Assembly (NCBI GenBank): GCA_047284725.1
Contig: JBJBEO010000001.1
Span: 512,001 to 576,000 of the forward strand
Length of the DNA: 64,000 nucleotides
From: Synechococcus sp.
GTDB lineage: Bacteria > Cyanobacteriota > Cyanobacteriia > PCC-6307 > Cyanobiaceae
Direction of reading: 5' to 3'
Below the pieces are notes generated by a model. It was not told the DNA's origin. It saw nothing but the letters and a program-made list of their open reading frames with translations, and searched no databases. A program made the position numbers and the translations under genes. Below are positions 24,033 to 40,854 of the stretch, in pieces; the stretch's first letter is position 1, and each line of letters starts with the position of its first letter.

Positions 24033-24066
24033 AGACACGGGATCCGGGGGCGTGGCCGTCAGAAGA

Positions 24067-24438
24067 ATGAAATCAATGCTTCATTTCTCCGTGCTTCTGG
24101 GGTTCGTCTTCGTGGGTTCCCATGTGCTTGCCCAGGAGGGGAGAAAGGTCAGCTGGAATTGCTACGGGGAGCTCGGTCCGTCCCAAGAAGGACAGCTTCT
24201 GCATCTCAGAGGCGCGACAGGGCCAGGTGCAGACAAGGTTGAGGTGCGTCCTCGCTTCAATCAGAAGGACGTGATCTTGATCTTGACGGCCACTGAGCCG
24301 CCTGCAGCAGACGGGACTGGTGTTCGTCGTCTGTACACCGATCCTTCAGGAAACCGTTGGCGTTACAGGTATGCCAATGGGAGGGCAAGTTGGTGGATGA
24401 TCGAAACGCGTTCGAATCTCCACTGCACGCCTGCTTGA
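24067..24438 (+). CDS. Hypothetical secreted protein
   Basis: Signal-peptide-like N-terminus ending VLA-QE. Confidence 0.6.
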   Translation: MKSMLHFSVLLGFVFVGSHVLAQEGRKVSWNCYGELGPSQEGQLLHLRGATGPGADKVEVRPRFNQKDVILILTATEPPAADGTGVRRLYTDPSGNRWRYRYANGRASWWMIETRSNLHCTPA

Positions 24439-24499
24439 GTCTGTGCCGAGTGGAAAACCATCTTGCTGGCCCAGATTGACTGAACTGCAAGCGCCTGCC

Positions 24500-24624
24500 T
24501 CTGGACCGATCAATATCCGAACACCGCCTCGAAACCGTCGAGCAGACCACAGCAGGTGCTTGCTGCAGGGCGTACCATTTTTGACCATGCAAACGAGATC
24601 GGCCCTGCCCTGAACGAAGACTGA
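24500..24624 (+). pseudogene. Degenerate copy of small ORF 'A'
   Basis: QQVLAAGRTIFDHANEIGPALNED* aligns with KQVLASVSTVLDHSEAIGLINNQD* at 38.35-38.43 kb. Confidence 0.5.
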
Positions 24625-24629
24625 ACGCC

Positions 24630-25001
24630 ATGACACGCACCACACTCACCGCAGCAACCATGGCCTTGAGTGTTCTCGTTGCCCCTGCCCTTGCGGACGA
24701 TTCGAGAGTTAAAAGTATTGAGTTCGGCAATGTCTGGTTCACCGATCCCATGCTGTCGTTGAATTACGCACAATCCCAGGATGATCCTGCTGAATTTGCA
24801 CTCGCAGTAACGACCCCAGATCCAGTCAAATCCAAAAACGGACTTGACCAGTCAACAGCAGTTTTGGTCAACTGCAAGTCAGGAAAGTATTCCGCTTCTT
24901 TTGGATATCATCCAGAAAAAAGCTTCGAAGACGACGCTGAGCTAATCGCCATCAAATTCTGCAATATTCACAAAAAATCGTTTTCACATTCCCTCTGGTA
25001 A
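24630..25001 (+). CDS. Hypothetical secreted protein with MxRTTLTA leader
   Basis: Signal peptide ending ALA-DD; mature part is lower GC. Confidence 0.7.
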   Translation: MTRTTLTAATMALSVLVAPALADDSRVKSIEFGNVWFTDPMLSLNYAQSQDDPAEFALAVTTPDPVKSKNGLDQSTAVLVNCKSGKYSASFGYHPEKSFEDDAELIAIKFCNIHKKSFSHSLW

Positions 25002-25071
25002 CCCTCCTCAACAGCAAAGGAACCAGCGGACTCCCGCCGCCACAGACCAGCTCACGAGTCAACATCACCCC

Positions 25072-25437
25072 ATGATCCGCACCACACTCACCGCCATCGT
25101 CTCCACGGCTGCCCTGATGGCCGTCAGCGAGCCCATGGACCCACCCGTGGCCCACGCCGACACCGTGAAGGATGCGTTGTGTGTACTCCAACGATTGCCA
25201 CCCACCAATCTTCCTGATGGAGCTGTCGCCGCCCTGCTCCCCCCCGAGGAGTTCCGCTGTGACTTCACCCAACTGCGGGGCAACGTCTACATCGACAGCC
25301 AGCGCTGGGCCTTCGAGTTCCCCGATGCCGAGCGAGGAAAGACCTACAAGCGCCAGAACACAGTCGATTTCAAACGCTTCAGCCGTGAGGGGCACTACAC
25401 GCTGACCGTGTTCGAGTCAGGCGAGAAGCCGAACTAG
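25072..25437 (+). CDS. Secreted protein family 'B', copy 1 (slightly truncated)
   Basis: Paralogue of 38437-38787; TAG replaces the GAG(E) codon before PGGF. Confidence 0.7.
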   Translation: MIRTTLTAIVSTAALMAVSEPMDPPVAHADTVKDALCVLQRLPPTNLPDGAVAALLPPEEFRCDFTQLRGNVYIDSQRWAFEFPDAERGKTYKRQNTVDFKRFSREGHYTLTVFESGEKPN

Positions 25438-25634
25438 CCTGGCGGGTTCTGACCAGCACCCGACCCATAGGCTGAGCAGCATCAGACCATCAGGTGTAGG
25501 CGCCGCCTCACAGCACTGCTTACAGCCTTTTCGCTGATATGGAGGCGCCTCAACAAAGACTCTCCCAAGGCGTATCTACGTGATGGCGAATGGTCAGGCT
25601 CGACTGAATTGGCCACTAGAAACCACCACCAGCC

Positions 25635-25718
25635 ACTCCACTTCCCCCTCCAGTTGATCCAGCTCTGACACCACCCTCAGGCACAACTGTTCAACGCAGA
25701 CCACGCCCAGCGATGGCA
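25635..25718. repeat. Scaffold block Ra, copy 1
   Basis: Near-identical to 36736-36819. Confidence 0.85.
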
Positions 25719-25842
25719 AAACATTGATCAAATGGTCAGAGCCGTCGGCGGGTCTGCGCCCTGAGGGCGGGTTTGGCCAGCTGTGAATTGGTTGTTAACG
25801 CCGACGGCGGGAAGCATGGGAAGGCGTTCGGAAGAGGGACTC

Positions 25843-25926
25843 CTAATTGATGGCTGGTGACAAGAGCCAGTAGAAGAAACTGGTCATTGCAACGGAGGCG
25901 GCAAGAGTTGCGCTCGTGAACGTCAT
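25843..25926 (-). CDS. 27-aa hydrophobic peptide
   Basis: MTFTSATLAASVAMTSFFYWLLSPAIN preceded by an AAAGGAGG Shine-Dalgarno. Confidence 0.55.
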   Translation of the reverse strand: MTFTSATLAASVAMTSFFYWLLSPAIN

Positions 25927-26315
25927 TGGGATGCCTCCTTTTTGGGTGTCATCTTGAGCGCCATGAGTGAAGAGGCTGCTATTGCTGAAATCACTAGGAT
26001 TAGTTCCATGTGTGGATGACAGGGGTCGTTTTCGTGTTAATCGGGCCAGGCGCCTCATGAATGCATCGGAAGCTACAAATTGATCACGCTAGGGGTTTGT
26101 GCTGATTTGATTGTGGTGTATTCAATACAATTTAGAAAAGGTATTGATTGAGTCTTTTTGAGGCTCGCCCTGTTTGGGATGGTCACTCCATATTCGATTT
26201 TTGGTCATGGGCTTAATCCTGGGTCTTGTCTTGGTCGTTGCGGGGCTTTCCTTGCAAGCGTTTGAGGTGGATGATGATGAAGATTTCCTCTAGCGAGCAA
26301 AAAGTGTTCGCAACA

Positions 26316-26488
26316 TGCAGGGATCACTCGTGAGCTAATGGGGGAATCGACAGTGCCGCACTCTGCACTAGTCGGCCACCACAGCATTCACAACCAATGC
26401 CCAACGCTGATTGCCGCTGAGGAGATGGATGCGTATCCACCTCCTCGAACACCTCTCCGACTTAATTGAAGATCTGGAGGGCGACTAA
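26316..26488 (+). pseudogene. Scaffold block Rb, copy 1, with an internally deleted copy of the 51-aa acidic ORF
   Basis: Aligns with 37191-37404; the segment between ATG-CCC-AAC-G and TGATTGCCGCTGAGGAG is missing. Confidence 0.7.
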
Positions 26489-26663
26489 CGGAACAGAAAA
26501 GGCATTCCGTAAGTTCAAGCAAGTAGGGAGCACCTCAGGCAGTCACATCTGAACCAGAGGCGTGGTGGCGTGAATGCTGGTTAGGAGAAGCGGGTGAGGG
26601 GACCCGCGGTCATCTCCCATGGCGTTGCAGTGGTGCTCGTGCCGGCTAAATCATCGCAGAAAA

Positions 26664-26676
26664 GAGAATCATTCTC
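26664..26676. promoter_or_regulatory. Fur-box-like palindrome
   Basis: GAGAAT-C-ATTCTC perfect 6-1-6 inverted repeat. Confidence 0.4.
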
Positions 26677-26778
26677 GCTGGGTCTTAATGCCTAATGACT
26701 GTTCAGGGATTCACGAGTCGGCACTTGGCCCACGACAATTGAGGAGAAGGCAGTGGTGCCTTTAATGCGTCACGCATC

Positions 26779-26816
26779 AGAGGGGGATGGCTGAGGGGCT
26801 GTCCCTCTTTTTTTTT
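26779..26816 (+). terminator. Rho-independent terminator with no sizeable upstream ORF
   Basis: GGGATGGC-TGAGG-GCTGTCCC stem followed by a T run. Confidence 0.7.
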
Positions 26817-27053
26817 GATGTCTGATAGGCGAAACGGGAAGGTCGACACGAGGCGATCCGTGATGCTGCAAGCTGCGTCGCGAGCGCCTGGTCCGGGCGG
26901 GGTGAGCGATGGGCCACGATTGCCACCCGTCTGGGCTGCTCACCATCAACTGCACGGAGGTGGGCCATGGCCTGACTCTCAGCTGATCCTCTTCAACGCT
27001 GGCCGCAGCAGTAAAAACAGGTTGTCTAATGAGGTCAGTCCATACTTGAAACC

Positions 27054-27248
27054 TTGCGGCCAATACTGACTCAACCTGACCCAACGACCAGGATTGTGTT
27101 GATCGTTCTGCTCCTGATGCAGCTCCCTTCACAGGCTCTTCAAGCCACCTGTGTCATCGACTTCGCCGCAGCTGTTGACGAGTCCTTGCCCATGCAGAGA
27201 AGGCTTGCTCTTGGCGTGTCCTTCTGCAACGGAGGGAGGGGCCGCTGA
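27054..27248 (+). CDS. Small hypothetical protein
   Basis: 64 aa with a hydrophobic N-terminal half, ending FCNGGRGR. Confidence 0.45.
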   Translation: MRPILTQPDPTTRIVLIVLLLMQLPSQALQATCVIDFAAAVDESLPMQRRLALGVSFCNGGRGR

Positions 27249-27277
27249 TGCCCAGAGCAGCACAAGGACCAAGGCAG

Positions 27278-27470
27278 CTCAGCCGATCCCTTTCAACGCT
27301 GATCGCAGCAGCAACAACAGATCACCTGCAGCAATCTCCACCGGTGCATCCGGTGCCGCTCATGGCGATCTTTGCCCTGCCGAGACGTTGGCACGCGCCA
27401 AGCGAGTTCTTTTAGTCGTGAGCATCGTGCTCGATTATCCCGAGGCGATCGGCCTCAGGTCATCCAAGGC
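27278..27470 (+). repeat. 29-bp motif plus frameshifted small ORF 'A' (block Rc)
   Basis: Aligns with 38246-38430 and with the reverse complement of 33270-33454. Confidence 0.85.
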
Positions 27471-27502
27471 ACGATGGCAACCTCAAGCACGGCCACTCAG
27501 CC

Positions 27503-27780
27503 ATGAGTCCCGCCAAACCGTGCAAGTTCACCCCACGCCAGGAAGCGGCCTCGGTCGATACGCCCCCGATCGCCTCAGAGAACTGGCAGACGATCCCAAG
27601 CTGGCACGTCTTGGTGGCGACCAACCCCAGCGCCTCTGCTGAGCGGCTCCTGGAGCTCTCACGCAGTGAGGAGAGGCGGTGCGTAAAGCCTGCACCAGCC
27701 ATTCCTATACACCAGTGGAAGCGATCTGGGGCACGTGTTCGATCGCGCGGAGGACGAGGCCTCCTTCTCCCTTAGATAAT
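27503..27780 (+). pseudogene. Frameshifted leucine-rich-repeat-variant (HEAT-like) protein remnant
   Basis: Joining frames gives DRLRELADDPKLARL/VATNPSASAERLLELSRSEE/AVRKACTSHSYTPVEAI. Confidence 0.55.
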
Positions 27781-27819
27781 GAAGGTATCTGTGGTGGTGA
27801 TCCAGCGGGTGCGGAGGTG

Positions 27820-29676
27820 TCAGGCGACCACCAGCTGTCCTGCCCCATTGCCCCTGGCTTCAGCCATGGCCTGTTGGGCGCGATCCAGCAGGCTGTCGGC
27901 TGTATCGGCTCCTGGCACGAAGCAGCTCACGCCCACGCATGCACTGCTGAAAAGCTTGGTGTCGGTCTCTGGGTTCAAGAGGTAAACCTGCGAAATAGCA
28001 TTGCGCAAGCTGTCCGCCAAGCTGAACGCGTCTTGTGGCTGGCAGCCAATGACCAGCACCACAAAGCTGTCCTGGCCGGGACGGTACAAATGATCTGTGG
28101 TGCGCAGCCTCCTGAGAACCGCCTTGGCCAGCCCCTGCAGAAGGGCATCGCCGGCGCGGCGGCCATGGCTTTTGTTGAACGCGCCGAAGTTATCCACATC
28201 CAGACAGATGCAGGTCAGAGCCTCACCGCTGCGCTTGCAGCGCTCTACTTCCTCCTGTAGTCGCTCTTCCAGAGCTTGGGGGTTGCCGCAGCCCGTGAGG
28301 GGATCGCGGCGCAGCAGGTTTTGCAACTCGCGGCGGGAGCTGTGCAGTTTGCCGTTGGCCAGCCGCAGCCGTTCGCTCAGCTGATTGGCCTGCCGGCTGC
28401 GGTCGTTGATCTGCTCGGCCAACTGACGCAGTTCGATGACGCCCGAGAGATGCAGAGGTACTAGTTCATTGCGCTTGGCTTCCAGCGGTGCCACCGCCAG
28501 AGAGAACTCGCGCTTCACTAGGCGGCCCAGCCACAGGCTCAGCCAGGCTGCAAGCAATACCGTAATGAAAATCACTCCCAGAAGGTAGGAGCTTTGCTGT
28601 TGCATGCGGATGACCGTTGGCCCGGCCGGCTGCACGACCTGGACCAAACTGGTGGTCGTCTTGTCGACGGTGGTCGCCTCGTACTGGTGGCTGTAACTCC
28701 AGTAGCCATTGACCCATTTTTTTAGTGTCGGTTTCTGGCCACGGGGGATCAGAAGCGCCAGCTCCTTGTTGTTCACATGGGCGCGGCCGCTGTCTTGGAA
28801 GTCGGTCTCGAGGCGGTCGAACAGCGCTGGATCCGAGCTCTGTACCAGGCCATCGCTATCGATTCGTCGGAAAGCCAGCTGATCATTGAGACCCTGCAGT
28901 AGTTCGGAGCTGTTCGAGCCGGGGGCGCGGGCGATGGCCATACTCAGGGTCTTCAAACCATCGAGCGCGCCGTTCTCCACTGCGAGCCCGATCTGGTCAT
29001 TGGCGATCAGGCTTAACAGCAGGGTGGGCATGATGACAGCCATCATCACCACCACAGCGATCAACCCTCGCAGCGAAATGCCGGGGCCCTTGCCGCGCTC
29101 AATCAGCAACCAGCGGATCATCAGCACGGCGGTCATCGCCAGAACCGTGTTGAAAACTCCGTTGAAGCTCTGCTTCACCGCCACCACGGTCACATTGGCC
29201 AGGTCGATCTGCATCACCACGCCGTAGAACAGCAGCACCAACGGCGCGCCGATCAGCAGCCAGTAGACGATCGAGTAGGACACCACCCTTCCGTCGGTGT
29301 CGTTGCGGGCCGGTCCGTTCCAACGATGAAGGGCCAGCCACAGCCAGGCCAGTTCGGCGGTGAAGATCAGCACCGCCCATGGATGGCCCCAGAGTCGAAT
29401 CGTCTGAAGGGCGGCGAGTGTGGCCATTGGCACCGCCCACCAGGTGCGCCAGAGCAACAGCGCAATCAGGGCCGGCAGCGAGCCGAGAAGCACATGGATT
29501 CCGTAGAACAGGGGTACCGGCAGGGTGTTCAGCGCCACCCCCAGGCCGCTTAGCAGTGCCAGCCAGCTCAGGCGTTGCTGACGATCACGCAGAACAGCCG
29601 TGGCTTGCTCGGGATGGCCCGAGGCCAGCAACTGTTTGGGGTTCGGCGTTTGGTCGTGAGGCAGTGCTTCAGGCAT
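27820..29676 (-). CDS. Multi-TM sensor protein with a degenerate GGDEF domain
   Basis: DPLTGCGN, LDVDNF, HGRRAGD; RTTD-x5-GQDSF in place of GGDEF. Confidence 0.88.
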   Translation of the reverse strand: MPEALPHDQTPNPKQLLASGHPEQATAVLRDRQQRLSWLALLSGLGVALNTLPVPLFYGIHVLLGSLPALIALLLWRTWWAVPMATLAALQTIRLWGHPWAVLIFTAELAWLWLALHRWNGPARNDTDGRVVSYSIVYWLLIGAPLVLLFYGVVMQIDLANVTVVAVKQSFNGVFNTVLAMTAVLMIRWLLIERGKGPGISLRGLIAVVVMMAVIMPTLLLSLIANDQIGLAVENGALDGLKTLSMAIARAPGSNSSELLQGLNDQLAFRRIDSDGLVQSSDPALFDRLETDFQDSGRAHVNNKELALLIPRGQKPTLKKWVNGYWSYSHQYEATTVDKTTTSLVQVVQPAGPTVIRMQQQSSYLLGVIFITVLLAAWLSLWLGRLVKREFSLAVAPLEAKRNELVPLHLSGVIELRQLAEQINDRSRQANQLSERLRLANGKLHSSRRELQNLLRRDPLTGCGNPQALEERLQEEVERCKRSGEALTCICLDVDNFGAFNKSHGRRAGDALLQGLAKAVLRRLRTTDHLYRPGQDSFVVLVIGCQPQDAFSLADSLRNAISQVYLLNPETDTKLFSSACVGVSCFVPGADTADSLLDRAQQAMAEARGNGAGQLVVA

Positions 29677-29720
29677 CGCGAATCAGTGAGGGGGAGTCGC
29701 GCTCGGTGCACTCAGTGTGC

Positions 29721-29755
29721 TCTGGCTGTCTGGCTGTCTGGCGCTCTGGCGGTCT
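29721..29755. repeat. Four tandem 8-mers TCTGGCnn
   Basis: TCTGGCTG TCTGGCTG TCTGGCGC TCTGGCGG TCT. Confidence 0.7.
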
Positions 29756-30142
29756 ATTCCAGTCTGCTGAAAATCAATGCCTTTGCCATGCGGGGATAAT
29801 GCACGCAGACCCTCTGTTCGGGTTCCGGGCTAAGCAGATGGCGTTCCTCAATGTCGCCATGCCGCTGAGGATCGCCGCCTCTCTCCTGCGCCTGGCTATT
29901 GACAGTTGGCTTGCGGGGTGCAAGAAGGCACCAACAAGTCTGATACTGCCAAGCTCCGGCTGGCGAGGTACGAGTTTGTCTATCGGGCGGGCAGCGCGAC
30001 TTGCTTGCTCCCAATGGTCCAGATGAGCGCAACCTGGCGGCCATGCAGCGGGCGCAGGAGCAGCTCTGCCTGTTGACACCCGGCGATCCACTTCCCAGGG
30101 TGGGTGATAAGGCTGTCATCGCCACAACGGACTGAGGCCCAA

Positions 30143-31156
30143 ATGCCACATGCGTCTGAGCCATCCAGCAGCAATCAGGTTGTTTCCATAAGGCTGGTAA
30201 TCAGTTTTCTGGCTGTCCTGATCGGTGGCGCTTCAGGGCTGTTGTGGTTGCTCAGCCGCCAGAGCCAGGAGCTGGTGGTCGCGATTACCAGTTGGCCGGG
30301 CTACGAATACTTCTACTTAGCTGAACAGGAAGATCTGGGACGTCCTTTCGGGCTCGACCTCAAGATTCAGCAGTACACCTCGCTAGAGGATCAGCGGAAG
30401 GCCTTTGTCCGGGGAGAGATGCCGGCGATTGCTACAACCGTTCCCGAGGCGATCGCCATCTGCCAAGAGATGCCGGCCCGCTGTCCGCAGCTGGTACTGG
30501 TGCTCGATGAATCCAGTGGGGCCGACAGGATCGTTGCGCGCCGCGAGCTGGATGAACCGGTCCAGTTGCAGGGCCGCCGTATCGGACTTGAACGCTCGGT
30601 GCTGGGGAAGTTCCTGTTGGTGCGCAGCCAGGGAGACCGACCCACTGCCTTCGACCAGTTCCGACTGACGTACGACGGCCCTAAGGCCTTGGTGGATGGA
30701 CTGCAACGCGGTGATCTCGACGCAATCGTGAGCTATGCCCCGCACGACACACCTCTGCTCAAAGATCCCCGCTTCCGAGTGGTGTTCAGCAGCCGAGCAA
30801 TCCCCGGCGAGGTGGTGGATGTACTCGCAGTTGACCCAACCTATGCAAGCCGCCACCGCGAGAGGGTGAAGGCCCTTGTTCAAGTCTGGTGGGCGGCTCG
30901 CGCCTTCTCCCGTCGCTGGCCAGAGAAGTCGATCGCCACGATGGCCCAGCGCCAGCAGAGCACTCCAGAAGCCTTCCGACTCATGGAGGTGGACCTGAGC
31001 TACCCCGGCCCGGCGGATCAGCCTCGGCTTCTGGCCGCTGAAGGGCCGATCGCCAGATCGATGAAGACGATGGCCGCGTTGATGGAGGCCTCCGGTGCGA
31101 TCCCTGCCGGAGTGCCACTGCCACAGATCAGCACGGCCTATTTAGAGGCCCGGTGA
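30143..31156 (+). CDS. ABC-type substrate-binding protein (NMT1/SsuA-like), membrane anchored
   Basis: WPGYEYFYLA, LVLDESSGAD, SRAIPGEVVDVL. Confidence 0.85.
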   Translation: MPHASEPSSSNQVVSIRLVISFLAVLIGGASGLLWLLSRQSQELVVAITSWPGYEYFYLAEQEDLGRPFGLDLKIQQYTSLEDQRKAFVRGEMPAIATTVPEAIAICQEMPARCPQLVLVLDESSGADRIVARRELDEPVQLQGRRIGLERSVLGKFLLVRSQGDRPTAFDQFRLTYDGPKALVDGLQRGDLDAIVSYAPHDTPLLKDPRFRVVFSSRAIPGEVVDVLAVDPTYASRHRERVKALVQVWWAARAFSRRWPEKSIATMAQRQQSTPEAFRLMEVDLSYPGPADQPRLLAAEGPIARSMKTMAALMEASGAIPAGVPLPQISTAYLEAR

Positions 31157-32427: not shown

Positions 32428-32933
32428 GGAGACTCCCTTCCTTTAGTCGGCTACACAATCTCCCTGGCATTGCTGCCCTTAGTAGACCTCTTAGTGAGAC
32501 ACCTTTGTGAAGTCACTTGCTGCGATAGCTCAAGATGTGTTGCTTCTGAGCCGTCAAAAATTGATGCAACTGCCGTGAGGCTTATGCAATCACTTTCGAA
32601 GGCGGTGAAAGCAAAGCAGGTGGCATGCGACATAGCGTGTGCCCATCATCGAGTCTGCGCACATGGCAAAGACGCTCTTTTGTGAAGGCCCGTCGTCGAT
32701 GACGTGGCGGCATCGAATTTTGAAAACCCATGGCAGTACAGGCTGACCAGATTGTGAGAAGAACAAGGCGGGTCATCAATAGCCATCGTCCTCGCTGAAT
32801 TGACTATCGAATTGATTGCGCTGGATCCGCTACCCCTGCATGGGGACATCATGTGATCTCAAAGTGCCTCTTGATGCAGGCACGTTTCGGTTTGAAAGGG
32901 GTGCATTGCTCTCTTTCGTTTCGAGCCAAGCAC

Positions 32934-33207
32934 AGCTGCTGGCTACTGAGATACCTCGGTGAACATCGGACCCACCCGGTCTTGAGCATCGCCTGCCACG
33001 CCTCAATGGCGTTGTGCCTGAGCATCCGCCTCACGACAGGTTGCCCACCACCACGTAGCGGCCTGGTCTCCACCTCAACCCACTTGGCATGGGCTGAGGC
33101 CAACGCATTCCGGAAGCAGACCACCTTCTGCTCCTGTTCATTCAGCAGCCAACCTTCCCCATTTATCTGAGGGTGTGGTTCAGGGTGCTGGCTCTTGCGT
33201 TCGCACC
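32934..33207 (-). pseudogene. DUF1651-like copy (start lost, 3' frameshift)
   Basis: Inverted near-identical copy of 40170-40433. Confidence 0.7.
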
Positions 33208-33209
33208 GA

Positions 33210-33266
33210 TCAGAACCCGCCAGGCTCGTTCGGCTTCTCACCTGACTCGAACGTGGTGCGGAGCAT
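33210..33266 (-). pseudogene. Internally deleted copy of secreted protein 'B'
   Basis: MLRTT fused directly to FESGEKPNEPGGF*. Confidence 0.8.
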
Positions 33267-33269
33267 GGG

Positions 33270-33454
33270 TTTCAGTCTTGGTTGACGGTGAGGCCAATCG
33301 CCTAGAAATGATCGAGCACGGTGCTCACAGCTGCAAGCACCTGCTTGGCGCGTGCCAGCGTCTCGGCAGGGCCTTGGCCCCGGCTGATGCACCGGTTGAG
33401 ATTGCTGCGGGTGACCTGTTGCTGCTGCGATCAGCGTTGAAGGGGATTGGTTGA
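33270..33454 (-). repeat. 29-bp motif plus small ORF 'A' remnant (block Rc)
   Basis: QQVTRSNLNRCISRGQGPAETLARAKQVLAAVSTVLDHF*AIGL. Confidence 0.85.
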
Positions 33455-33461
33455 TTTCTGC

Positions 33462-33589
33462 GCAGGAGAGCACCAGCCCCCTTAGGCGAAGAGGCCGGTG
33501 CTCTGTGGGACCCCTCTATGCCCTCAAGGCCCCACAGGTGAATCAACTCCCGACTCATGAGGGATCGATACCCCTAAGTGGGGACATTG
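33462..33589 (-). ncRNA. Structured ~125-nt element, copy E2
   Basis: Four hairpins shared with 33883-34013 and 38114-38238. Confidence 0.55.
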
Positions 33590-33804
33590 ATCTGTATTGA
33601 GGGAGCCGTGTTGAGAGCCTGAGAAAGATCATCAAATTGATGGATTCGGCATGCATCTGATTTAGAAAACTCTGAATCAGATGCGCAAAGTCGCCTCACT
33701 AGTAAGTCCTTGTCGACATCTGAAAGAGAACCATCTGGAGACCATTTCAGGCAGGTCCTGCCGATGCAAGTGTCGTCTGTTGTTCCTTTAGAGATCAGGG
33801 TCAT
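33574..33804 (-). CDS. Small hypothetical protein between elements E3 and E2
   Basis: GGAGG RBS upstream of the ATG; CIGRTCLKWSPDGSLS. Confidence 0.7.
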   Translation of the reverse strand: MTLISKGTTDDTCIGRTCLKWSPDGSLSDVDKDLLVRRLCASDSEFSKSDACRIHQFDDLSQALNTAPSIQINVPT

Positions 33805-33882
33805 TTACACCTCCCTTGCCTTGTGTCCAACTTGGGACAGCGATCTCCATTGCAGATACCCCCTAACGAGGACGTTTGCTCC

Positions 33883-34013
33883 TGCATGAGAGCACCAGCC
33901 CCCGGAAGGGAGAGGGCAAGTGCTCCATGGGGCTCTCGTTCTCTCACCAAGAACCCAACAAAAGGACTCAACTCCTGATCCATGAGGGATCGATACCCCT
34001 TGGTGGGGACAAT
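33883..34013 (-). ncRNA. Structured ~125-nt element, copy E3
   Basis: Same stems as E1 and E2 with different loops. Confidence 0.55.
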
Positions 34014-34062
34014 GAGAGGGCTGAGGGTCAGGTCCTGGTTGACCGAGATTCTCCAGAGGCGC

Positions 34063-34093
34063 AAAAAAAAAACGCCCCTGGCTCACAGGGGCG
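34063..34093 (-). terminator. Rho-independent terminator
   Basis: CGCCCCTG-tgagc-CAGGGGCG followed by T10 on the minus strand. Confidence 0.85.
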
Positions 34094-34300
34094 CTTCAAT
34101 CGCTATTTGTCTGACGTGTTCAGTAGCCAAGACCGTCCAGGCTGTCGGTTCCGAACATGGTGACTTCACGTTCATCGTTGAAGGGGATTGGTTGAGGTCA
34201 GGGCATGGCCGTGATTTTTGATCTTTTGTGGTTGTCGGTCATGATCAGATCCTGCAGTGCTGGGCGGCCATGGCCTTAGTTCACAGGTGACAGACCTCGA

Positions 34301-35389
34301 TCAAGACATAGAGAAAGCAGAAGGGTCCGGAAGGACACGCCAAGCCTCTAACTCCATGGCAAATGCCGCATGGCGCTGAATCGCATCATCCATGAACAAA
34401 GCGACACGGATCGATGCAGCATCGCTTGAGGCAAAACCATGCATGGCGTCACCAGCCGTCATACACCGAAGAGCCGCCAACCTCCAGTCGCGCCAAGCAT
34501 CGTCAAGTCTGTAATGACAGATGCCGCGTTCAATCAGAACAGCATGCCAAGCCTGAACAAGATCCTCGTAACGCCCCTGCCTTTGCGCAACAGGCGTACT
34601 TCCTCCCACTAAAAAGGCCACATCAAGGGCGGCGAGTCCACGGGCAGCCCACGACCAGTCAAGGATGACCGACTTAGGCGCAGCAGCATCAGTATCGAAC
34701 AACAGATTATCCGCCCTGAGATCACCGTGAATCAGAGTCCATTGAGATTCAGATAGAGCTTTATTAATCGCATCACTTTGCTCAAGCACACAAGAATAGA
34801 GCTTGCAGACTTCCGAACCAAATCTCACCCCATACGTCGCGAAAAAATCCTCAACAATCTCTTGCTTGGGCGCCCCAAACCACAGACCGTGGTGGGGCAA
34901 CCAATCGTGGTCTACCAAAGCATCATCCATCCAAAATTCTGCATGAATTGCCGCCATATTCTTTACAGCAGACAGCGTTTGTTCGTAGGTCAGACCCACC
35001 ACTTGATCGCCAGCCTTCAGATCCGAAAGATCCTCCATCAACAACCAAGCGGGGGCCTCTCCACTGCTGGCGTACACGACAGGCTGGTAGCCCTTCAGCC
35101 GCGGCGTGCAATGTTGATAAACACCAACCTCACGCTGAAAAGCATTGTTCAAACGACTGAGTTCGTTGAACATTGGATCAGCTGTTTCACTCTTTAGGAT
35201 GAGTGTTGATGGGCACTCATTCGCAGACTCCGCTTCAAGACTGAGACGCCAAGCTGTTGACTGAAGACCGCGTCCATCGCCAAGACGATCGGCCTGCAAA
35301 GCCTTGACCCTGCAGCCAAGCGCATCACCAATCCATTCGGGCTCTGGCGCCCTCACAATCGAAGGATCGAAGATGCTGCCATCAACCAT
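34301..35389 (-). CDS. APH/choline/ecdysteroid-kinase-like phosphotransferase
   Basis: LLMEDL, Brenner motif HGDLRADN, ILDW. Confidence 0.85.
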   Translation of the reverse strand: MVDGSIFDPSIVRAPEPEWIGDALGCRVKALQADRLGDGRGLQSTAWRLSLEAESANECPSTLILKSETADPMFNELSRLNNAFQREVGVYQHCTPRLKGYQPVVYASSGEAPAWLLMEDLSDLKAGDQVVGLTYEQTLSAVKNMAAIHAEFWMDDALVDHDWLPHHGLWFGAPKQEIVEDFFATYGVRFGSEVCKLYSCVLEQSDAINKALSESQWTLIHGDLRADNLLFDTDAAAPKSVILDWSWAARGLAALDVAFLVGGSTPVAQRQGRYEDLVQAWHAVLIERGICHYRLDDAWRDWRLAALRCMTAGDAMHGFASSDAASIRVALFMDDAIQRHAAFAMELEAWRVLPDPSAFSMS

Positions 35390-35827
35390 TCACGGGCTCG
35401 TCAACTGGGATCAAGTTAGCCTCACCATCCAAGAGAAGCCGCCCGTCAGAACAGGGGTGATACAAGCACAACCAATCAACACAATTCACAGAGGTCCACA
35501 GAAGGTAGGCAGCTCAACTTGCGGGCCACTATGGTTCTGAACAGACTACGCATAACTTTCCAACGCCATGAATCCGTGAAAGCAACACGAAACTGCTAGG
35601 GATTGTCCGCAAACAATTGGCTGTCATTGCTGATTACAGGACAGGCAGAAGCTGGCATTAGTTACCAGCTTCTATCTGCAGTCGCTGCCAGTAACCGTCT
35701 GAACTAGGGCGGCATTCTTGCGCCTGGGTTGGGCGCCCGATGGCATCAAAGTAGTTGGCGCGGACTAACTCCCAGCGAGAAGCCATGTGGAGCTGGTCAG
35801 CGGTGCAGATGTATTAACGTCTTGCTA

Positions 35828-36055
35828 TCAGTCAACCTCCAGCCGACAGGCGGCAATGGCAATGGCAATGTTGATTAACTTGCACGCCTTGGACAGCTCA
35901 CGTTGAGCGGCAATCAGATTGCGTGCATTGGCTGCATTTAGCTCAGTGTTCTGCAAGATGTCTTCCAGGTCTGACAGTGCAGCTTCTGCCGTGGGGAGGA
36001 TTTTCTGAGAGAGCTGAATCGATAGCTCTCGGTAGTTAGCTGGGTGTCGTTTCAT
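35828..36055 (-). CDS. Small helical hypothetical protein
   Basis: MKRHPANYRELSIQ..., 75 aa, amphipathic. Confidence 0.55.
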   Translation of the reverse strand: MKRHPANYRELSIQLSQKILPTAEAALSDLEDILQNTELNAANARNLIAAQRELSKACKLINIAIAIAACRLEVD

Positions 36056-36090
36056 TGTTGGAACCCCGCCGAAGCGGGGCGTGATGGTGT

Positions 36091-36252
36091 TCAGGCGAGG
36101 CAATAACGGCGTGCAGTGGTCTGAGAGATGTGCAGGCGTTCAGCGATGACGCGATAGGTGTGGCCGCGTTTGCGCCAGCGGCGGGCTTTCAGCTGTGGGC
36201 TCTCTGTGAGCCAGAGCAGGAAGACGATCGGCAGCAACAGTGCAACTGGCAA
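36091..36252 (-). CDS. Small membrane-anchored helix-turn-helix protein (5' end probably disrupted; not in ORF track)
   Basis: VALLLPIVFLLWLTESPQLKARRWRKRGHTYRVIAERLHISQTTARRYCLA*. Confidence 0.6.
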   Translation of the reverse strand: MPVALLLPIVFLLWLTESPQLKARRWRKRGHTYRVIAERLHISQTTARRYCLA

Positions 36253-36306
36253 GCAGCATCACCAGCCGTCTTTTCAGTATCTGAATCGACAAGCGAACAA
36301 GACCTA

Positions 36307-36699
36307 GTGATCAAACGGCTGCTCTCCCTAATGGCAGTGCTGCTCGCCAGTTGCACTGCTGCTGCTGGACCGTACCCCGAGGTGCAGATCGCTCGTTGCT
36401 ACGACGGCGATACCTGCACCAGCACCACCGGAGAGAAGATCCGACTGGCCTGCATCGATACGCCAGAGCTCCAGGGGCGCAATGCTGATCCGATTCCAGC
36501 GAAAGCTGCACGGGACTATCTGCGTGGCTACCTGAAAGGGAAGACCATCACCATCCGCCGGATCGATACCGATCGCTATGGCCGCACCGTGGCGGAGCTG
36601 TTTGCTGATGGCGTGAACGTCCAGCAACAGTTGGTTGCGAGCGGACATGCAGAGATCTACCGCCGTTACGCAAAACCGTGCGAATGGGTCAATCACTGA
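36307..36699 (+). CDS. Thermonuclease (SNase-like), probable lipoprotein
   Basis: LLASC lipobox, YDGDT, IRLACIDTPE, DRYGRTVA. Confidence 0.9.
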   Translation: MIKRLLSLMAVLLASCTAAAGPYPEVQIARCYDGDTCTSTTGEKIRLACIDTPELQGRNADPIPAKAARDYLRGYLKGKTITIRRIDTDRYGRTVAELFADGVNVQQQLVASGHAEIYRRYAKPCEWVNH

Positions 36700-36735
36700 G
36701 TCGCAACAACATCACTGCTGTAGACCCCACCCGCG

Positions 36736-36819
36736 ACTCCACTGCCCCCTCCAGTTGATCCAGCTCTGACACGACCCGCAAGCACAACTGTTCAACGCAG
36801 AGCATCAGAAGCGATGGCA
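36736..36819. repeat. Scaffold block Ra, copy 2
   Basis: Near-identical to 25635-25718. Confidence 0.85.
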
Positions 36820-36838
36820 GACCATCAACCAGGTTCGG

Positions 36839-37051
36839 CTACTTGCGCCCAGCAATTGCGTCGGTTATGTCATCGATAATTTGACAAAAATTTGTGGAAG
36901 CAAAGGGGGGGAATTCGCAATTCCATGCCGATAAAGCAAAATAAGCCTCAGCCTTCTGTCGCTTATCAAGGTTTGCAGATGCTGGCGATGCCAAGCTGAT
37001 TGCCAACAAAGCAGCAGCTCCAACGCTAGTGAGCGCTTTAGAACGACGCAT
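36839..37051 (-). CDS. Small secreted protein
   Basis: Signal peptide ending ASA-NL; two Cys. Confidence 0.6.
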   Translation of the reverse strand: MRRSKALTSVGAAALLAISLASPASANLDKRQKAEAYFALSAWNCEFPPFASTNFCQIIDDITDAIAGRK

Positions 37052-37270
37052 GATGTGGCCCTTTAATACCTAGCCTTGTTTAGCTGAGTGTGCTCTTTCT
37101 CGGCAACGAGGTGTGTTTGGCTGTAGAAGACCTTCCCCCCTCTGGTTGCCTTTCTCAGTCGTATGCCATCGACTCTGGTGAGTGTGGCCACGCAGGGTTC
37201 ACCCGTGAGATAATGAGGTCATCGACAGGGCAGCCACAGGCGCCGGTCGATCACCACAGCATTCAATCCA

Positions 37271-37426
37271 ATGACCAACGCCGAACGCGCGGTGGTCCTC
37301 TACGAGCTCTACACGAAGCTCGATGAGTTGATCACCGCTGAGGAGATGGAAACCTTCCCATTCCTCGAACATCTTGCCGACCTCATTGAAGATCTGGAGG
37401 GGGAACCCCCGCCTTCGTCGTCTTAA
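37271..37426 (+). CDS. 51-aa acidic helical protein (block Rb; not in ORF track)
   Basis: MTNAERAVVLYELYTKLDELITAEEMETFPFLEHLADLIEDLEGEPPPSSS; decayed paralogue at 26397-26488. Confidence 0.6.
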   Translation: MTNAERAVVLYELYTKLDELITAEEMETFPFLEHLADLIEDLEGEPPPSSS

Positions 37427-37702
37427 TCAGCTTGTTGGGAACTCAACCTGATCAACAGGAAAGGTTGAATTTTGGCATTTTTCGACCCATTTAACCTTTC
37501 GAATAATATCGTCAGTGCCTCTAATAGGGAGAGGCCAGTCGGCTTTCGCTCTAGCCCAACAAGGTCTTTGACGATCAAATCTCCTCATATTGAGCTGCTC
37601 TTGCTGAATGACTGTCCAGCCCAGCCATACGGAAGGGGGGGCGATGACAATGGTCCAGGCAAAAATGACGAAATTCTTGGTGGTCTTATCCATGTAGCCC
37701 AC
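37427..37702 (-). CDS. Small single-TM hypothetical protein
   Basis: 91 aa, N-terminal TM segment, lower GC. Confidence 0.55.
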   Translation of the reverse strand: MGYMDKTTKNFVIFAWTIVIAPPSVWLGWTVIQQEQLNMRRFDRQRPCWARAKADWPLPIRGTDDIIRKVKWVEKCQNSTFPVDQVEFPTS

Positions 37703-37770
37703 TCTGCACCGGTCCTGATGCGAGTGACACCCTCGCCTTCAGCTCGTCGGGCTCATAACCCGAAGGTCGA

Positions 37771-38085
37771 TCAGGCGGCTTTGACAGCAATGGATCGCTC
37801 AACGGTCCACAGGGTGCGATTGCGCTGGCGGTGCTTGCCGAAGCGATACCCGAACGCCTCATCACCATCAGCGAAGCCATCGATGCCTTTGACCCCCAAG
37901 GCAGTCAGCTCATCAGTGGTGAGCACCAGGGCGTGATCAGCAGCGTCGGCAAGACCCTTCGCTCGCTTCAAGGGATCAGACGATGCGGCCTGCTGTTGCC
38001 CCATCACTGACGCCATCACAGACATCAGTGCAGCGGTGTCTGGCGGGACAATCCCGGACTGTTCAGGACCGTTTAAAAGCGTCAT
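37771..38085 (-). CDS. Hypothetical protein, possibly 5' truncated at a repeat
   Basis: 104 aa; the ATG abuts the 29-bp motif at 38086. Confidence 0.55.
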   Translation of the reverse strand: MTLLNGPEQSGIVPPDTAALMSVMASVMGQQQAASSDPLKRAKGLADAADHALVLTTDELTALGVKGIDGFADGDEAFGYRFGKHRQRNRTLWTVERSIAVKAA

Positions 38086-38113
38086 CTCAGCCGATCCCCT
38101 TCAGCGCTGATCG

Positions 38114-38238
38114 CAATGTCCCCACCTAGGGGTATCGATTCCTCATTGGTCGGGAGTTGAGTCCTTTTGTGGGGCTTTGACAGACGGAGCCCCATAGAGC
38201 ACTTGCCCTCATGAGCCCGGGGGCTGGTGCTCTCCTGC
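38114..38238 (+). ncRNA. Structured ~125-nt element, copy E1
   Basis: Four hairpins; bracketed by the 29-bp motif at 38086 and 38246. Confidence 0.55.
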
Positions 38239-38245
38239 GCAGAAA

Positions 38246-38431
38246 TCAGCCGATCCCCTTCAACGCTGATCGCAGAAGCAACAGCAGATCACCCGCAGCA
38301 ATCTCTACCGGTGCATCCGCCGGGGCTAAGGCCCTGCCGAGACGCTGGCACGCGCCAAACAGGTGCTTGCATCCGTGAGCACTGTGCTCGATCATTCCGA
38401 GGCGATTGGCCTCATCAACAACCAAGACTGA
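38246..38431 (+). repeat. 29-bp motif plus small ORF 'A' remnant (block Rc)
   Basis: QQITRSNLYRCIRRG*GPAETLARAKQVLASVSTVLDHSEAIGLINNQD*. Confidence 0.85.
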
Positions 38432-38436
38432 AACCC

Positions 38437-38787
38437 ATGCTCCGCACCACACTCACCGCCATCGCATCCACGGCTGCGCTGATCGCTGTCAGCGAACCGA
38501 TGGATCCACCAGTGGCCCAGGCCGACACCGTGAAGGATGCGCTCTGCGTCCTTTCCCGCCACGACGACTCCATCCCCAGGGAGGAGTTCCGCTGCGACTT
38601 CACCCAGACCATGGGCGGCGCTTATGTCGACAGCACGCGCTGGGCATTCATCTTTCCCCACTCCGAGCAGGACAAAACCTTCAGTCGGCAGAACACCGAA
38701 GATTTCATTCGCTGGACCCGTGAAGGTCAATACACACTGACCCTGTTCCAAAGCGGAGAGAAGCCAAACGAGCCCGGCGGGTTCTGA
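38437..38787 (+). CDS. Secreted protein family 'B', intact copy
   Basis: MLRTTLTAIASTAALIAV leader; paralogue at 25072. Confidence 0.75.
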   Translation: MLRTTLTAIASTAALIAVSEPMDPPVAQADTVKDALCVLSRHDDSIPREEFRCDFTQTMGGAYVDSTRWAFIFPHSEQDKTFSRQNTEDFIRWTREGQYTLTLFQSGEKPNEPGGF

Positions 38788-38852
38788 TCGGTTGGAACGT
38801 AAGAGCCAGCTCAGGTTCTGCAAATCACTGATCAAGGCTTCAATCAGACACT

Positions 38853-38881
38853 AAAAAAGCCCCGCCGAAGGGCAGGGCTTT
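38853..38881 (-). terminator. Terminator of the RTX-like gene (possibly bidirectional)
   Basis: A6-GCCC(C)GCC-gaag-GGCAGGGC-TTT. Confidence 0.7.
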
Positions 38882-38904
38882 GCGGGTCTTGATAAGGCAG
38901 CGCC

Positions 38905-40017
38905 TTACACAATTAGGAAGCCATTGACAACATCGTAGGTGTTGCCGAATTCGAGAGCAACTGCGCCCATTTCATTCACATCGTCATTTTGATCAATGGT
39001 GCCGCTAATGCCGCTAATCAGTTCAAAGTTACGGATAATCATACGGCCCCCCGAACCGTCGACGAGGTAGGGAGACCCTCCGTTTTGGCCATCGACATAG
39101 CTATAAGTACCATTACCGAGCACAATTTTGTCTTTAGTGCCTGCAACTTCTCCGTCTCTTACAAACCCGTCACCGTCGAATCTAATCCCGGAGCTAAAAC
39201 CATCTCCAATCAAGGTGTCGTTGTCTGCGCCAAGATAAATACGCCCGAACCCTTCGAAACCGCCAGTAAGTGCATCGACCGTATCATTGCCTGCGCCCGT
39301 AATAATAGTATTTCTAGAAAAAGTGAAGGAAATCCCGGCGTCGTCACTGGTGCTAACACCAGTAATTGAATCGTCGCCGCTACCGGTTCTGATAAATCCT
39401 CGGGTAAGGCTGATCCCAGTCGCCCCCTCTCCGTAAATTGAATTATTTCCGTCGCCCAATTGTATGTTTGAACGATCTAAATATACCCCGACAGCTCCAC
39501 CCGTTCCGTTAACCGAATCATTGCCATCTTCGGCTAGAAGGAGAAGGCCCGAACTTTCCAGATTAATTCCATGACTTCCACCTGTTCCATTGATTGAGTT
39601 ATTTCCATTGCCCATGTCTATTAGTGATAATTTTGCTGATACCCCATAGACTCCCCCTTCTCCATTAATCGTATCGTTGCCATTGCCAGTAGTAAGCGCG
39701 GACTCAATTAGGTATACACCATTGAGTTCACCAACACCAACAAATGTATCGCTTCTGTCGCCTGTAATCAGTCTAGATCTAACTAATAGGATGCCATCAT
39801 CTTCAAGCAGAACGTTTCCTTCGGAATCTTCTTCGCCATTGCCGACAATGGTTACTTTTTTGTTTAGCGACCCAGCCTGCCCTCCCCCAGTGACTGGATC
39901 AGTACTAGTTGTGTCCAATACTTGACCATCCAGCACCCAAGAGCTTGCTTTCAATGATGCACGGCTTTGAGGGGAAAGCTCTTGGAATGCTTTCAGAAGA
40001 TCAAAATGATCGGACAT
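38905..40017 (-). CDS. RTX-like Gly/Asn/Asp-rich calcium-binding repeat protein (start uncertain)
   Basis: Repeats TGNGNDTING, MGNGNNSING, DGNDSVNG, LGDGNNSIYG, TGSGDDSITG, TGAGNDTVDA; lower GC. Confidence 0.8.
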   Translation of the reverse strand: MSDHFDLLKAFQELSPQSRASLKASSWVLDGQVLDTTSTDPVTGGGQAGSLNKKVTIVGNGEEDSEGNVLLEDDGILLVRSRLITGDRSDTFVGVGELNGVYLIESALTTGNGNDTINGEGGVYGVSAKLSLIDMGNGNNSINGTGGSHGINLESSGLLLLAEDGNDSVNGTGGAVGVYLDRSNIQLGDGNNSIYGEGATGISLTRGFIRTGSGDDSITGVSTSDDAGISFTFSRNTIITGAGNDTVDALTGGFEGFGRIYLGADNDTLIGDGFSSGIRFDGDGFVRDGEVAGTKDKIVLGNGTYSYVDGQNGGSPYLVDGSGGRMIIRNFELISGISGTIDQNDDVNEMGAVALEFGNTYDVVNGFLIV

Positions 40018-40169
40018 TAAAAAACAGTAACTAGCTTCAAACTTCGTCGGCAGGCGCTTGGTTTGTCTTAAGTCCTCATGAGAATCGGGTGAGCGTATTT
40101 CTTGCGTTTCTATCTGACTCATTTCCAGATCGGTTACAAGACATGCGAGAGAGAGCAGTGTTCTGATCG

Positions 40170-40433
40170 ATGGAACGCAAAAGCCAGCACCCTGAGCCGC
40201 ACCCTCAGAAAAACGGGGAAGGCTGGCTGCTGAACGCACAGGAGCAGAAGGTGGTCTGCTTCCGGAATGCGTTGGCCTCAGCTCATGCCAAGTGGGTTGA
40301 GGTCGAAACCAGGCCGCTGCATGGTGGTGGGCGGCCCGTCGTGAGGCGGATGCTCAGGCATAACGCCATCGAGACATGGCAGACGATGCTCAAGACCGGG
40401 TGGGTCCGGTGTTCACCGAGGCATCTCAAGTAG
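40170..40433 (+). CDS. DUF1651-like picocyanobacterial protein
   Basis: GEGWLLN...RRMLRHNAIETWQTMLKTGWVRC. Confidence 0.7.
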   Translation: MERKSQHPEPHPQKNGEGWLLNAQEQKVVCFRNALASAHAKWVEVETRPLHGGGRPVVRRMLRHNAIETWQTMLKTGWVRCSPRHLK

Positions 40434-40446
40434 CCAGCAGCTACTT

Positions 40447-40854
40447 CTAAAAGCCGGACATGATCCTCAGCCTTGTGGCGATGAATTTCTTGGTCTGTTC
40501 CCTGGTGTCTTCGCTGCACCTGGCGGCTCGCATTGTGATTCCGTAGCCGAGCTTCGTAGGGACATTCAGCTCGATTCCGTTGCGGCCAAGGAATAAGCGA
40601 GTGGCGATAAAAGACATCCGCTTGTTGCCTTCTGCGAAGCCGTGGTTTTTGTTCATCGCCAGCATTAGATGGGCGGCCAAGACGAAGCGATCGTCTTCCT
40701 CGGCGTAAAACCAAAGCTGCTGCGGTGCGGCCAAAGCCTGCTCCAGCTTGTGGGTGTCGATACCGGGAATCCCTCCGTAAAGCTTCAACATCCGGGCGTG
40801 AGCCGGTTCAAGCCACTCCCGCTTCAACCAACTCGGCTCAACCGGCCGAGGCAT
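40447..40854 (-). CDS. Fic/Doc family toxin
   Basis: HGFAEGNKR motif; YGGIPGI..LEQALAAP. Confidence 0.9.
   Translation of the reverse strand: MPRPVEPSWLKREWLEPAHARMLKLYGGIPGIDTHKLEQALAAPQQLWFYAEEDDRFVLAAHLMLAMNKNHGFAEGNKRMSFIATRLFLGRNGIELNVPTKLGYGITMRAARCSEDTREQTKKFIATRLRIMSGF

Follow-up and report, generated by a model that had tools for sequence, protein, structure and literature searches.

Integrons are built from an IntI-type recombinase, an imperfect palindrome (attC) that ends each cassette, and cassettes that are co-oriented behind one promoter. Prochlorosin precursor genes of marine cyanobacteria form a multigene family in which a conserved 5′ part is joined to a variable body. Flexible genomic islands hold most strain-specific genes of marine picocyanobacteria, phage-responsive ones included, and the entry of DNA into these islands without plasmids, prophages or obvious recombinases is only partly understood. 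DUF1651 genes are reported as phage-responsive island genes in marine Synechococcus and Prochlorococcus, and toxin-antitoxin genes are likewise described as island genes (PMC5490813). Tycheposons are described as cargo-carrying integrative elements of Prochlorococcus islands that carry an inward-facing tyrosine or large serine recombinase, integrate at transfer RNA (tRNA) genes and leave partial tRNA copies (bioRxiv 10.1101/2020.12.28.424599). Here we analyse a 64-kb stretch of a Synechococcus sp. genome (GenBank assembly GCA_047284725.1, contig JBJBEO010000001.1, positions 512,001–576,000), hereafter the window, for which an earlier note had proposed that conserved spacers let small secreted or membrane genes be exchanged, with an integron-like outcome. 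We find that the locus, at 24.0–41.1 kb of the window, is an ordinary flexible island in which small-gene modules were duplicated and now form a real mosaic, and that a cassette mechanism is unproven. Comparisons cover the 64-kb window, one genome per species (185,579 species), protein databases, a phage collection and three loci that carry relatives of a secreted-protein gene, B, described below.

The region lies between core genes, with an oxoprolinase gene up to 24032 on one side and YebC, TruB and KaiABC from 41.9 kb on the other, and it has a lower guanine-plus-cytosine (GC) content (0.47–0.60 within the island versus 0.65–0.67 in the flanks). Two DUF1651 proteins, an EcKL-type kinase and a staphylococcal-nuclease-like protein are encoded in it, along with a Doc toxin and its partner open reading frame (ORF). 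The position between core genes and the deviating base composition mark the region as a flexible (hypervariable) island in the chromosome of a marine Synechococcus-type picocyanobacterium. A native cluster of GGDEF, binding-protein and GGDEF genes at 27.8–32.4 kb, with GC of 0.61–0.62 and native codon usage, interrupts the island. No integrase, recombinase or transposase family is present among the 30 + 48 window ORFs scanned against Pfam, which agrees with what had been reported before.

Comparison of the window with itself by blastn gives 17 off-diagonal matches, all inside 24551–40442, and a repeat finder concurs. Three blocks, Ra, Rb and Rc, are present twice in the same order with copies 10.9–11.1 kb apart and 76–93% identity. 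Ra lies at 25626–25724 and 36727–36825 (86%), Rb at 26314–26410 and 37189–37284 (76%) and again at 26408–26484 and 37329–37404 (81%), and Rc at 27279–27457 and 38246–38414 (82%, with sub-blocks of 93% and 83%). A third module at 32.9–33.6 kb is inverted and partial: it contains an inverted match to Rc (27279–27468 with 33454–33277, 79%), a longer inverted match to the 38-kb module (38114–38450 with 33589–33253, 86%) and an inverted DUF1651 match (40160–40442 with 33216–32934, 91%). Further matches link ORF B′ to ORF B (25069–25452 with 38434–38787, 72%) and two copies of a leader tail (24551–24643 with 33345–33253, 70%). The Ra–Rb and Rb–Rc intervals retain no similarity between copies on either strand (local-alignment z-scores of −0.6, 1.5, 0.2 and 0.1 against 200 shuffles), homology boundaries are sharp, and no site motif is common to the blocks. 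Both the repeated block order, with coordinates within about 10 nucleotides (nt) of the blastn ones, and the unrelatedness of the DNA between the blocks had been recognized correctly in the earlier note. Copies 1 and 2 share exact matches of 17–28 nt at most, which gives no hint that they exchanged sequence recently.

All of the small ORFs that had been named between the blocks were recovered. Codon scores are used here to judge them (0.30 ± 0.14 for true frames and −0.21 ± 0.29 for wrong frames), a measure that is weak for foreign genes; bona fide DUF1651 genes score about 0. In the Ra1–Rb1 interval, a peptide ORF of 27 amino acids (aa) lies inside a 71-aa ORF (25843–26058, minus strand), and the Ra2–Rb2 interval holds a 70-aa ORF with a signal-peptide-like N-terminus, a codon score of −0.08 and no family (36839–37051, minus). 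Between Rb1 and Rc1 are a strong terminator-like hairpin with a T run (26779–26810, plus), also named before, and a 64-aa ORF (27054–27248, plus). The corresponding part of copy 2 has a 91-aa ORF with a hydrophobic N-terminal stretch (37427–37702, minus; codon score −0.03) and a 104-aa ORF (37771–38085, minus; codon score 0.26; first Atlas match 0.91, a cyanobacterial hypothetical cluster), the start of which is preceded by the reverse complement of the E2 motif described below, the source of its Shine-Dalgarno-like GAAGGGGA. Most of the supposed cargo ORFs of copy 1 receive non-coding codon scores. A Fur-like box that had been placed here is not supported, since the canonical 19-nt Fur box gives 0 matches with up to 3 mismatches. 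Upstream of the terminator, at 26664–26676, is a perfect 13-nt palindrome, GAGAATCATTCTC, which is probably what had been called the Fur-like box.

Ra and Rb had been taken for spacers, but both are small genes, with one Rb copy a pseudogene. Ra carries a small coding ORF on the minus strand, of 45 aa in Ra1 (25594–25731) and of 38 aa with a different C-terminus in Ra2 (36689–36805), and the codon scores of 0.29 and 0.18 are gene-like. Over an 18-codon core, Ra1 and Ra2 differ by 3 synonymous and 0 non-synonymous changes. Both candidate database proteins (2/2) are Ra relatives, with 98% and 73% identity, and the core is open in all four versions although the upstream frames of the relatives differ. 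The 98% relative is encoded on at least three database contigs, one of them 2.57 Mb long. The right-hand flank of Ra1 (25732–25817) is also present in both Ra1 relatives at 93–94% identity, so this part of the interval was inherited with Ra and not swapped. Rb is a promoter plus the gene of a conserved acidic protein of 46–51 aa. Rb2 (37189–37426, plus) has a −10-like promoter (37185–37214), a leader and a 51-aa gene (37271–37426) with a codon score of 0.52, and a search of 1.84 billion representatives gives the protein 26 matches at E ≤ 1e-3; small proteins (45–73 aa) with a clear consensus make up 22 of these matches. The family has no Pfam match, and a profile search of PDB gave nothing below E 0.07. 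Alignment with Rb2 reveals that Rb1 and its upstream region (26314–26484, plus) have lost the ATG and have a 40-nt deletion and a 1-nt insertion, which makes Rb1 a pseudogene.

Rc is non-coding. It is about 180 nt long, has three to four copies, and stands directly before ORF B in two modules. Rc1 (27279–27468, plus), behind which no B gene is left, Rc2 (38246–38425, plus) and Rc3 (33277–33454, minus, the inverted copy) each consist of an E2 motif followed by a leader body. A diverged Rc-like leader tail, with the first 8–9 codons common to the B family, precedes ORF A′ (24551–24652, plus; 70% to 33345–33253 and 85% to 38420–38459), and a 28-nt repeat (D9) at the leader tail and signal-peptide start occurs three times. 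Rc probably acts as leader or promoter of the secreted B-family genes. A protein gene on either strand was considered and rejected: interruptions of the reading frames differ from copy to copy, the codon scores of sense ORFs are −0.26 to −0.31, and a search of 5.8 billion proteins gave no relative for the antisense ORF. An "ORF A" that had been assigned to the 38-kb module, inside Rc, has no conserved reading frame and is unrelated to the 123-aa ORF at 24630. Rc was also rejected as a miniature inverted-repeat transposable element (MITE) because terminal inverted matches of 9–10 nt number 0, 1 and 1 in the three copies. Duplicated flanks that would mark a target-site duplication are absent at Rc and E1, pairing of the Rc ends in alifold has 0 compensatory pairs of 51, and there is no copy of E1 or Rc outside the island within the 64 kb.

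E2, the 27-nt motif (27–29 nt) that opens Rc, has 6 copies in the window versus 0 expected, and a profile search returns the same 6 copies and nothing else in the window (next match E 0.22). It has no conserved inverted-repeat (palindromic) arms. A second E2 occurs upstream of all three Rc: a distal copy of 42 nt in segment I (26979–27020, plus; 83% to the Rc1 start), the left direct repeat around E1 (38087–38115, plus), and a distal copy in the inverted module (34169–34195, minus), followed by a terminator at 34097–34069. The DNA between the paired motifs is 273 nt (26979 to 27279) in the first case, E1 in the second, and terminator–E1–ORF–E1 in the third. E1 is an element of about 125 nt, separate from Rc, with three copies that are numbered here 2 (38116–38245, plus), 3 (33462–33590, minus) and 4 (33884–34017, minus). 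At 38116–38245 it is flanked by two 29-nt E2 copies that are identical at 28 of 29 positions, the right one being the E2 of Rc2. E1 folds well on the B-sense strand, with z-scores of −3.9 (copy 2), −3.2 and −2.3, versus −1.35, −0.16 and −2.67 on the opposite strand, and its alifold structure has 40 pairs, 3 with compensatory changes. A 76-aa ORF of uncertain coding status (33574–33804, minus; codon score −0.19) lies between two E1 copies. Rfam gives no gathering-score match for E1, E2, Rc or Ra; at E ≤ 1 it matches just a ctRNA model (E 0.27) on the terminator at 34061–34098. The heptamer CTGATCG was tried as a core common to E2 and a 30-nt repeat described below and was dropped, as it occurs 0.73 times per kb in the island versus 0.65 outside.

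The genes behind these leaders encode secreted proteins. ORF B (38437–38787, plus) encodes a secreted all-beta protein of 116 aa with 55 relatives, mostly metagenomic. Its structural model has a predicted local distance difference test (pLDDT) value of 79, with the mature part above 90, and finds no PDB match at E ≤ 0.001; the best template-modelling (TM) score is 0.5, to PH-like beta sandwiches. ORF B′ (25072–25437, plus), a secreted and likewise all-beta B-family paralogue of 121 aa with the "insert / N-type" allele, has 66–67% aa identity to ORF B, with synonymous divergence (dS) of 0.72 and non-synonymous divergence (dN) of 0.22. ORF A′ (24630–25001, plus; 123 aa) has the signal-peptide-like N-terminus common to the B family and an unrelated mature part. 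A′, B′ and B have the first 8–9 codons in common, and A′ and B also have the leader in common; similarity between B′ and B starts only 3 nt before the ATG. In a set of 32 B-family sequences, each of the four possible combinations of two variable segments is represented (9, 5, 13 and 5), which indicates that the B family recombines. The DUF1651 genes of the inverted module (32849–33241, minus; Pfam PF07864, E 1.4e-9) and of the 38-kb module (40170–40433, plus; 87 aa; PF07864, E 1.7e-10) pass the PF07864 gathering score (38.6 and 41.6 bits versus a cut-off of 22) and have dS of 0.34, dN of 0.047 and dN/dS of 0.14. A′, B, Ra, Rb and the 64-, 70-, 76-, 91- and 104-aa ORFs were assigned to no family by Pfam, NCBIfam, PHROGs or PADLOC.

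Several rearrangements of these modules can be read directly. The inverted module is present, as the earlier note had it, but it is not an intact counterpart of the 38-kb module: an internal deletion has left 15 codons of its B gene (33210–33256, minus), it has a single uninterrupted B/DUF1651 junction, and it lacks the 1349-nt segment with a 444-aa ORF. In the 38-kb module that segment (38811–40159, minus; GC 0.47) is an insert between a left direct repeat of 30 nt, which spans the stop codon of B plus 6 initial DUF1651 codons (38781–38810, plus), and a right direct repeat of 29 nt (40160–40188, plus; identical to the left repeat in 26 of 30 alignment columns). The insert holds the 444-aa ORF (probable start at 40122, giving 405 aa) and a terminator at 38881–38856, and its right end (40114–40149) is a 36-nt remnant of the B 3′ end with 69% identity (z 6.8). 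The protein of 405–444 aa (38905–40122, minus) contains many G-x-G-N-D-type repeats, with a weak RTX-repeat match (E 0.09); it has the look of a repeat protein of foreign origin whose gene was inserted between B and DUF1651. In segment I, behind B′, a remnant of the B-stop/DUF1651-start junction with an 18-nt deletion remains at 25438–25452 (plus; tblastn E 0.006), and homology then ends; no DUF1651 or B remnant was found behind Rc1. B-type gene starts (the first 14–30 nt, a CAC-rich signal-peptide start) are the endpoint of homology or deletion in at least three independent rearrangements, with B-start endpoints at 24630–24652, 25072–25094, 33243–33256, 36696–36726 and 38437–38459. The B-stop/DUF1651-start junction is another rearrangement endpoint.

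Other genomes provide relatives of B without its surroundings. A B-family search of the species genomes gave 73 pattern matches and 3 confirmed loci, all in species other than that of the window and in three different contexts (3/3); the nearest recovered loci are Synechococcus genomes. Ra, Rb, Rc, E1 and E2 are absent from all three loci, where blastn with the window matched the B gene alone (6 matches) and the best match to the E2 profile has E 0.16. E2 was the sole block searched in the species genomes, and an exact IUPAC search gave 0 matches in all 185,579. In a Synechococcus metagenome-assembled genome (locus L002), a homologue of the staphylococcal-nuclease-like protein (65% aa identity) is encoded 19 nt upstream of a B homologue. 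In the window the nuclease gene (36130–36699, plus; Pfam SNase E 1.3e-12) and B are 1.74 kb apart, with Ra2 to Rc2 in between. The two proteins may work together. The nuclease–B pair in L002 (9523–10940) is operon-like and is followed by an ecotin-like secreted protein gene on the other strand. In Synechococcus sp. MIT S9507 (2578–13982 of the recovered locus), a B-family gene (9971–10321) adjoins a nickel superoxide dismutase gene in DNA of 45–50% GC, with a terminase-large-subunit gene (PHROG E 8.7e-37) on one side and an integrase-like ORF (PHROG E 1.4e-5; Pfam E 0.064) on the other; this looks like a prophage- or satellite-like element with B as cargo. The third relative, with 41% identity, is on a contig of 64% GC labelled Microcystis elabens FACHB-917. 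Such a GC content seems high for the genus Microcystis, and the contig may come from an accompanying picocyanobacterium. In the phage collection, DNA of 24000–27850 has no match, that of 32800–40500 matches Synechococcus phage S-CBS3 alone, and tblastn with the B, DUF1651 and Rb proteins finds no match. The S-CBS3 match is weak (115 nt, 71%, E 1e-4), lies at the start of the nuclease gene (36090–36204), and falls in a hypothetical protein / DNA methylase region of the phage.

We favor, with somewhat better than even confidence, an origin in old segmental duplications, one direct and one inverted, that were followed by deletions, insertions and pseudogenization. The direct duplication would have involved roughly B–Ra–Rb–Rc (24.5–27.5 kb and 36.7–38.8 kb), and a younger inverted duplication would have involved E1–E2–Rc–B–DUF1651 (33.6–32.9 kb and 38.1–40.4 kb). 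That the two differ in age is suggested by dS, which is lower for the DUF1651 pair than for B and B′. Each copy would then have lost, gained and degraded DNA between the blocks on its own, with inserts that may have entered by recombination at short homologies. Among these events, in an order that we infer, would be the decay of Rb1 to a pseudogene, the deletion inside B, the disappearance of B and DUF1651, the arrival of the 1349-nt foreign insert and the spread of E1. The blocks would still be recognizable because they are functional, or were until recently, as genes or leaders. The locus does not look like a new cassette-exchange system; it looks like the product of ordinary duplication, insertion and decay.

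Several observations weigh against this account. The Rb1 pseudogene is still 76–81% identical to Rb2 while the intervals are unalignable (z of about 0), so DNA must have been replaced and decay alone is insufficient. Breakpoints cluster at both ends of the B gene, direct repeats of 29–30 nt recur around inserts, and the second E2 upstream of all three Rc gives a regularity that exceeds what random insertions and deletions predict. The order of events also depends on one outgroup locus, L002. A possible remnant of the first B codons behind the nuclease gene (36696–36726, plus) is suggestive only. This stretch matches the L002 B start at 20 of 32 nt, a level that 14 of 127,938 positions in the window attain, and its local-alignment score is reached by a fraction of 0.0105 of 2000 shuffles. 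The stretch after the nuclease gene has no significant homology to the stretch upstream of B′ (0.08).

In a rival explanation, the conserved blocks, above all E2, E1 and the B ends, would be short homologies at which host recombination, with no dedicated recombinase, inserts or replaces DNA from other strains. We regard this explanation as possible, although unlikely on balance. Sharp homology boundaries are consistent with it, as are four inserts flanked by repeats of block sequence (E1; the 273-nt stretch; the 76-aa ORF; and the 1349-nt insert with its 36-nt B remnant), the four segment combinations within the B family, and B relatives in three contexts, one of them between a terminase and an integrase-like gene. 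The boundaries, the repeat-flanked inserts and the segment combinations also lend partial support to the earlier proposal, in which conserved blocks would act as recombination anchors. Other parts of that proposal are not supported: Ra and Rb are genes, the blocks have no motif in common, and the Ra1 flank is kept in both relatives found. Exact matches of 17–28 nt between in-window copies do not exceed what RecA-dependent recombination requires to be efficient and may fall short of it, the blocks differ by 7–25% and are not homogenized, and the "cargo" of copy 1 looks non-coding. E2 has no exact match among the species genomes, and the window has neither a common site nor a recombinase. A broader version of the same idea, in which E2, E1 and the B ends are insertion points of a recombinase-poor cassette mechanism, draws on the observed pattern of E2–X–E2 before all three Rc, the 30-nt repeat around the 1349-nt foreign gene, and E1–ORF–E1. 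Segments would enter beside a short conserved sequence and duplicate it, and each B-type module would gather private upstream and downstream inserts through an enzyme supplied in trans or through host recombination machinery. Taken as a whole, this combined claim appears quite improbable.

The six E2 copies, against none expected and with the profile finding no others, could also suggest a site-specific system in which E2 is the attachment site of a recombinase encoded elsewhere and insertion of E1 or small genes duplicates the site. E2 pairs bracket variable DNA upstream of every Rc, and those around E1 are nearly identical (28/29), as such a system would produce. However, the E2 cases are not independent, because a recent duplication gave rise to two of the three Rc modules. 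Moreover, there is no recombinase within 64 kb, E2 lacks conserved inverted-repeat arms and occurs in none of the species representatives, the repeats at the other repeat-flanked insert are unrelated in sequence, and CTGATCG is not enriched in the island. We therefore consider a site-specific system very unlikely. An assembly artefact, raised in the earlier note, in which mis-joined or collapsed repeats give the repeated order, is scarcely credible and no support for it was found. The copies differ by 7–30% with many insertions and deletions, so an assembler would not confuse them and misassembly is no concern; junctions fall inside readable gene remnants, and two independent database sequences reproduce the Ra1 neighborhood. 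Old duplications with later remodelling remain the explanation that we prefer.

Other features of the window are less directly connected with the modules. At the island edge (40447–41132, minus) are a Doc-family toxin of 135 aa (Pfam Fic; TIGR01550; PHROG Doc-like toxin, E 4.6e-18) and an upstream 92-aa partner ORF, which matched no antitoxin family. This locus also has weak PADLOC matches to candidate defence proteins (PDC-S23, E 9e-6). The only tRNA that Rfam finds in the window is at 11307–11378; the island contains neither a tRNA nor a fragment of one. ARAGORN calls an 86-nt tRNA-Gly at 28284–28369 (minus), within a 618-aa GGDEF ORF. The call lacks Rfam confirmation and is probably false, as the host ORF has native codon usage.

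The locus is a well-resolved example of island building, with duplicated modules, pseudogenes, a repeat-flanked foreign gene, and breakpoints at the ends of one secreted-protein gene. It defines three uncharacterized small-protein families (B, Rb and Ra) and two non-coding repeats (E1 and Rc/E2) that can be traced in population data. If the repeat-flanked inserts are polymorphic between strains, they could provide a handle on recombinase-independent gene gain; if they are not, the locus is an ordinary decaying duplication.

Comparison with described systems places the locus among flexible islands. It resembles integron arrays in that small genes alternate with repeats and the content between them varies, but the integron-like outcome that had been proposed is not supported, given the lack of IntI in the window, the lack of attC-type palindromes (inverted matches in Rc are 9–10 nt at most), and genes that lie on both strands and are not co-oriented; two of the three "repeats" are themselves genes. 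MITEs and repetitive extragenic palindromic (REP)-like elements are similar to E1 and Rc in being short non-coding repeats with more than one flanking context, and in the folding of E1 on one strand. They differ in their ends, since terminal inverted repeats here are at most 9–10 nt, in two of three Rc copies, and no target-site duplication is present. Prochlorosin-type families have a counterpart in the common first codons of A′, B′ and B, the unrelated mature parts of A′ and B, and the mosaic B alleles; however, the common part here is a secretion signal plus an untranslated leader and not a modification leader peptide, and no modifying enzyme is encoded nearby. Tycheposons are alike in variable island cargo, short direct repeats at insertions and scattered remnants (bioRxiv 10.1101/2020.12.28.424599). 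The window has no recombinase and no island tRNA or fragment, and its repeats are local gene pieces or E2, so a tycheposon-like system is not supported. Ra, Rc, E1 and E2 have no Rfam family, and E2 was not found in other species; apart from this, nothing essential differs from the flexible islands of Prochlorococcus and marine Synechococcus. The locus shares with them its core-gene flanks, lower GC and dense small lineage-specific genes, together with DUF1651 genes, a pair of toxin and antitoxin genes, and an insert of foreign, low-GC DNA (PMC5490813 for DUF1651 and toxin-antitoxin genes).

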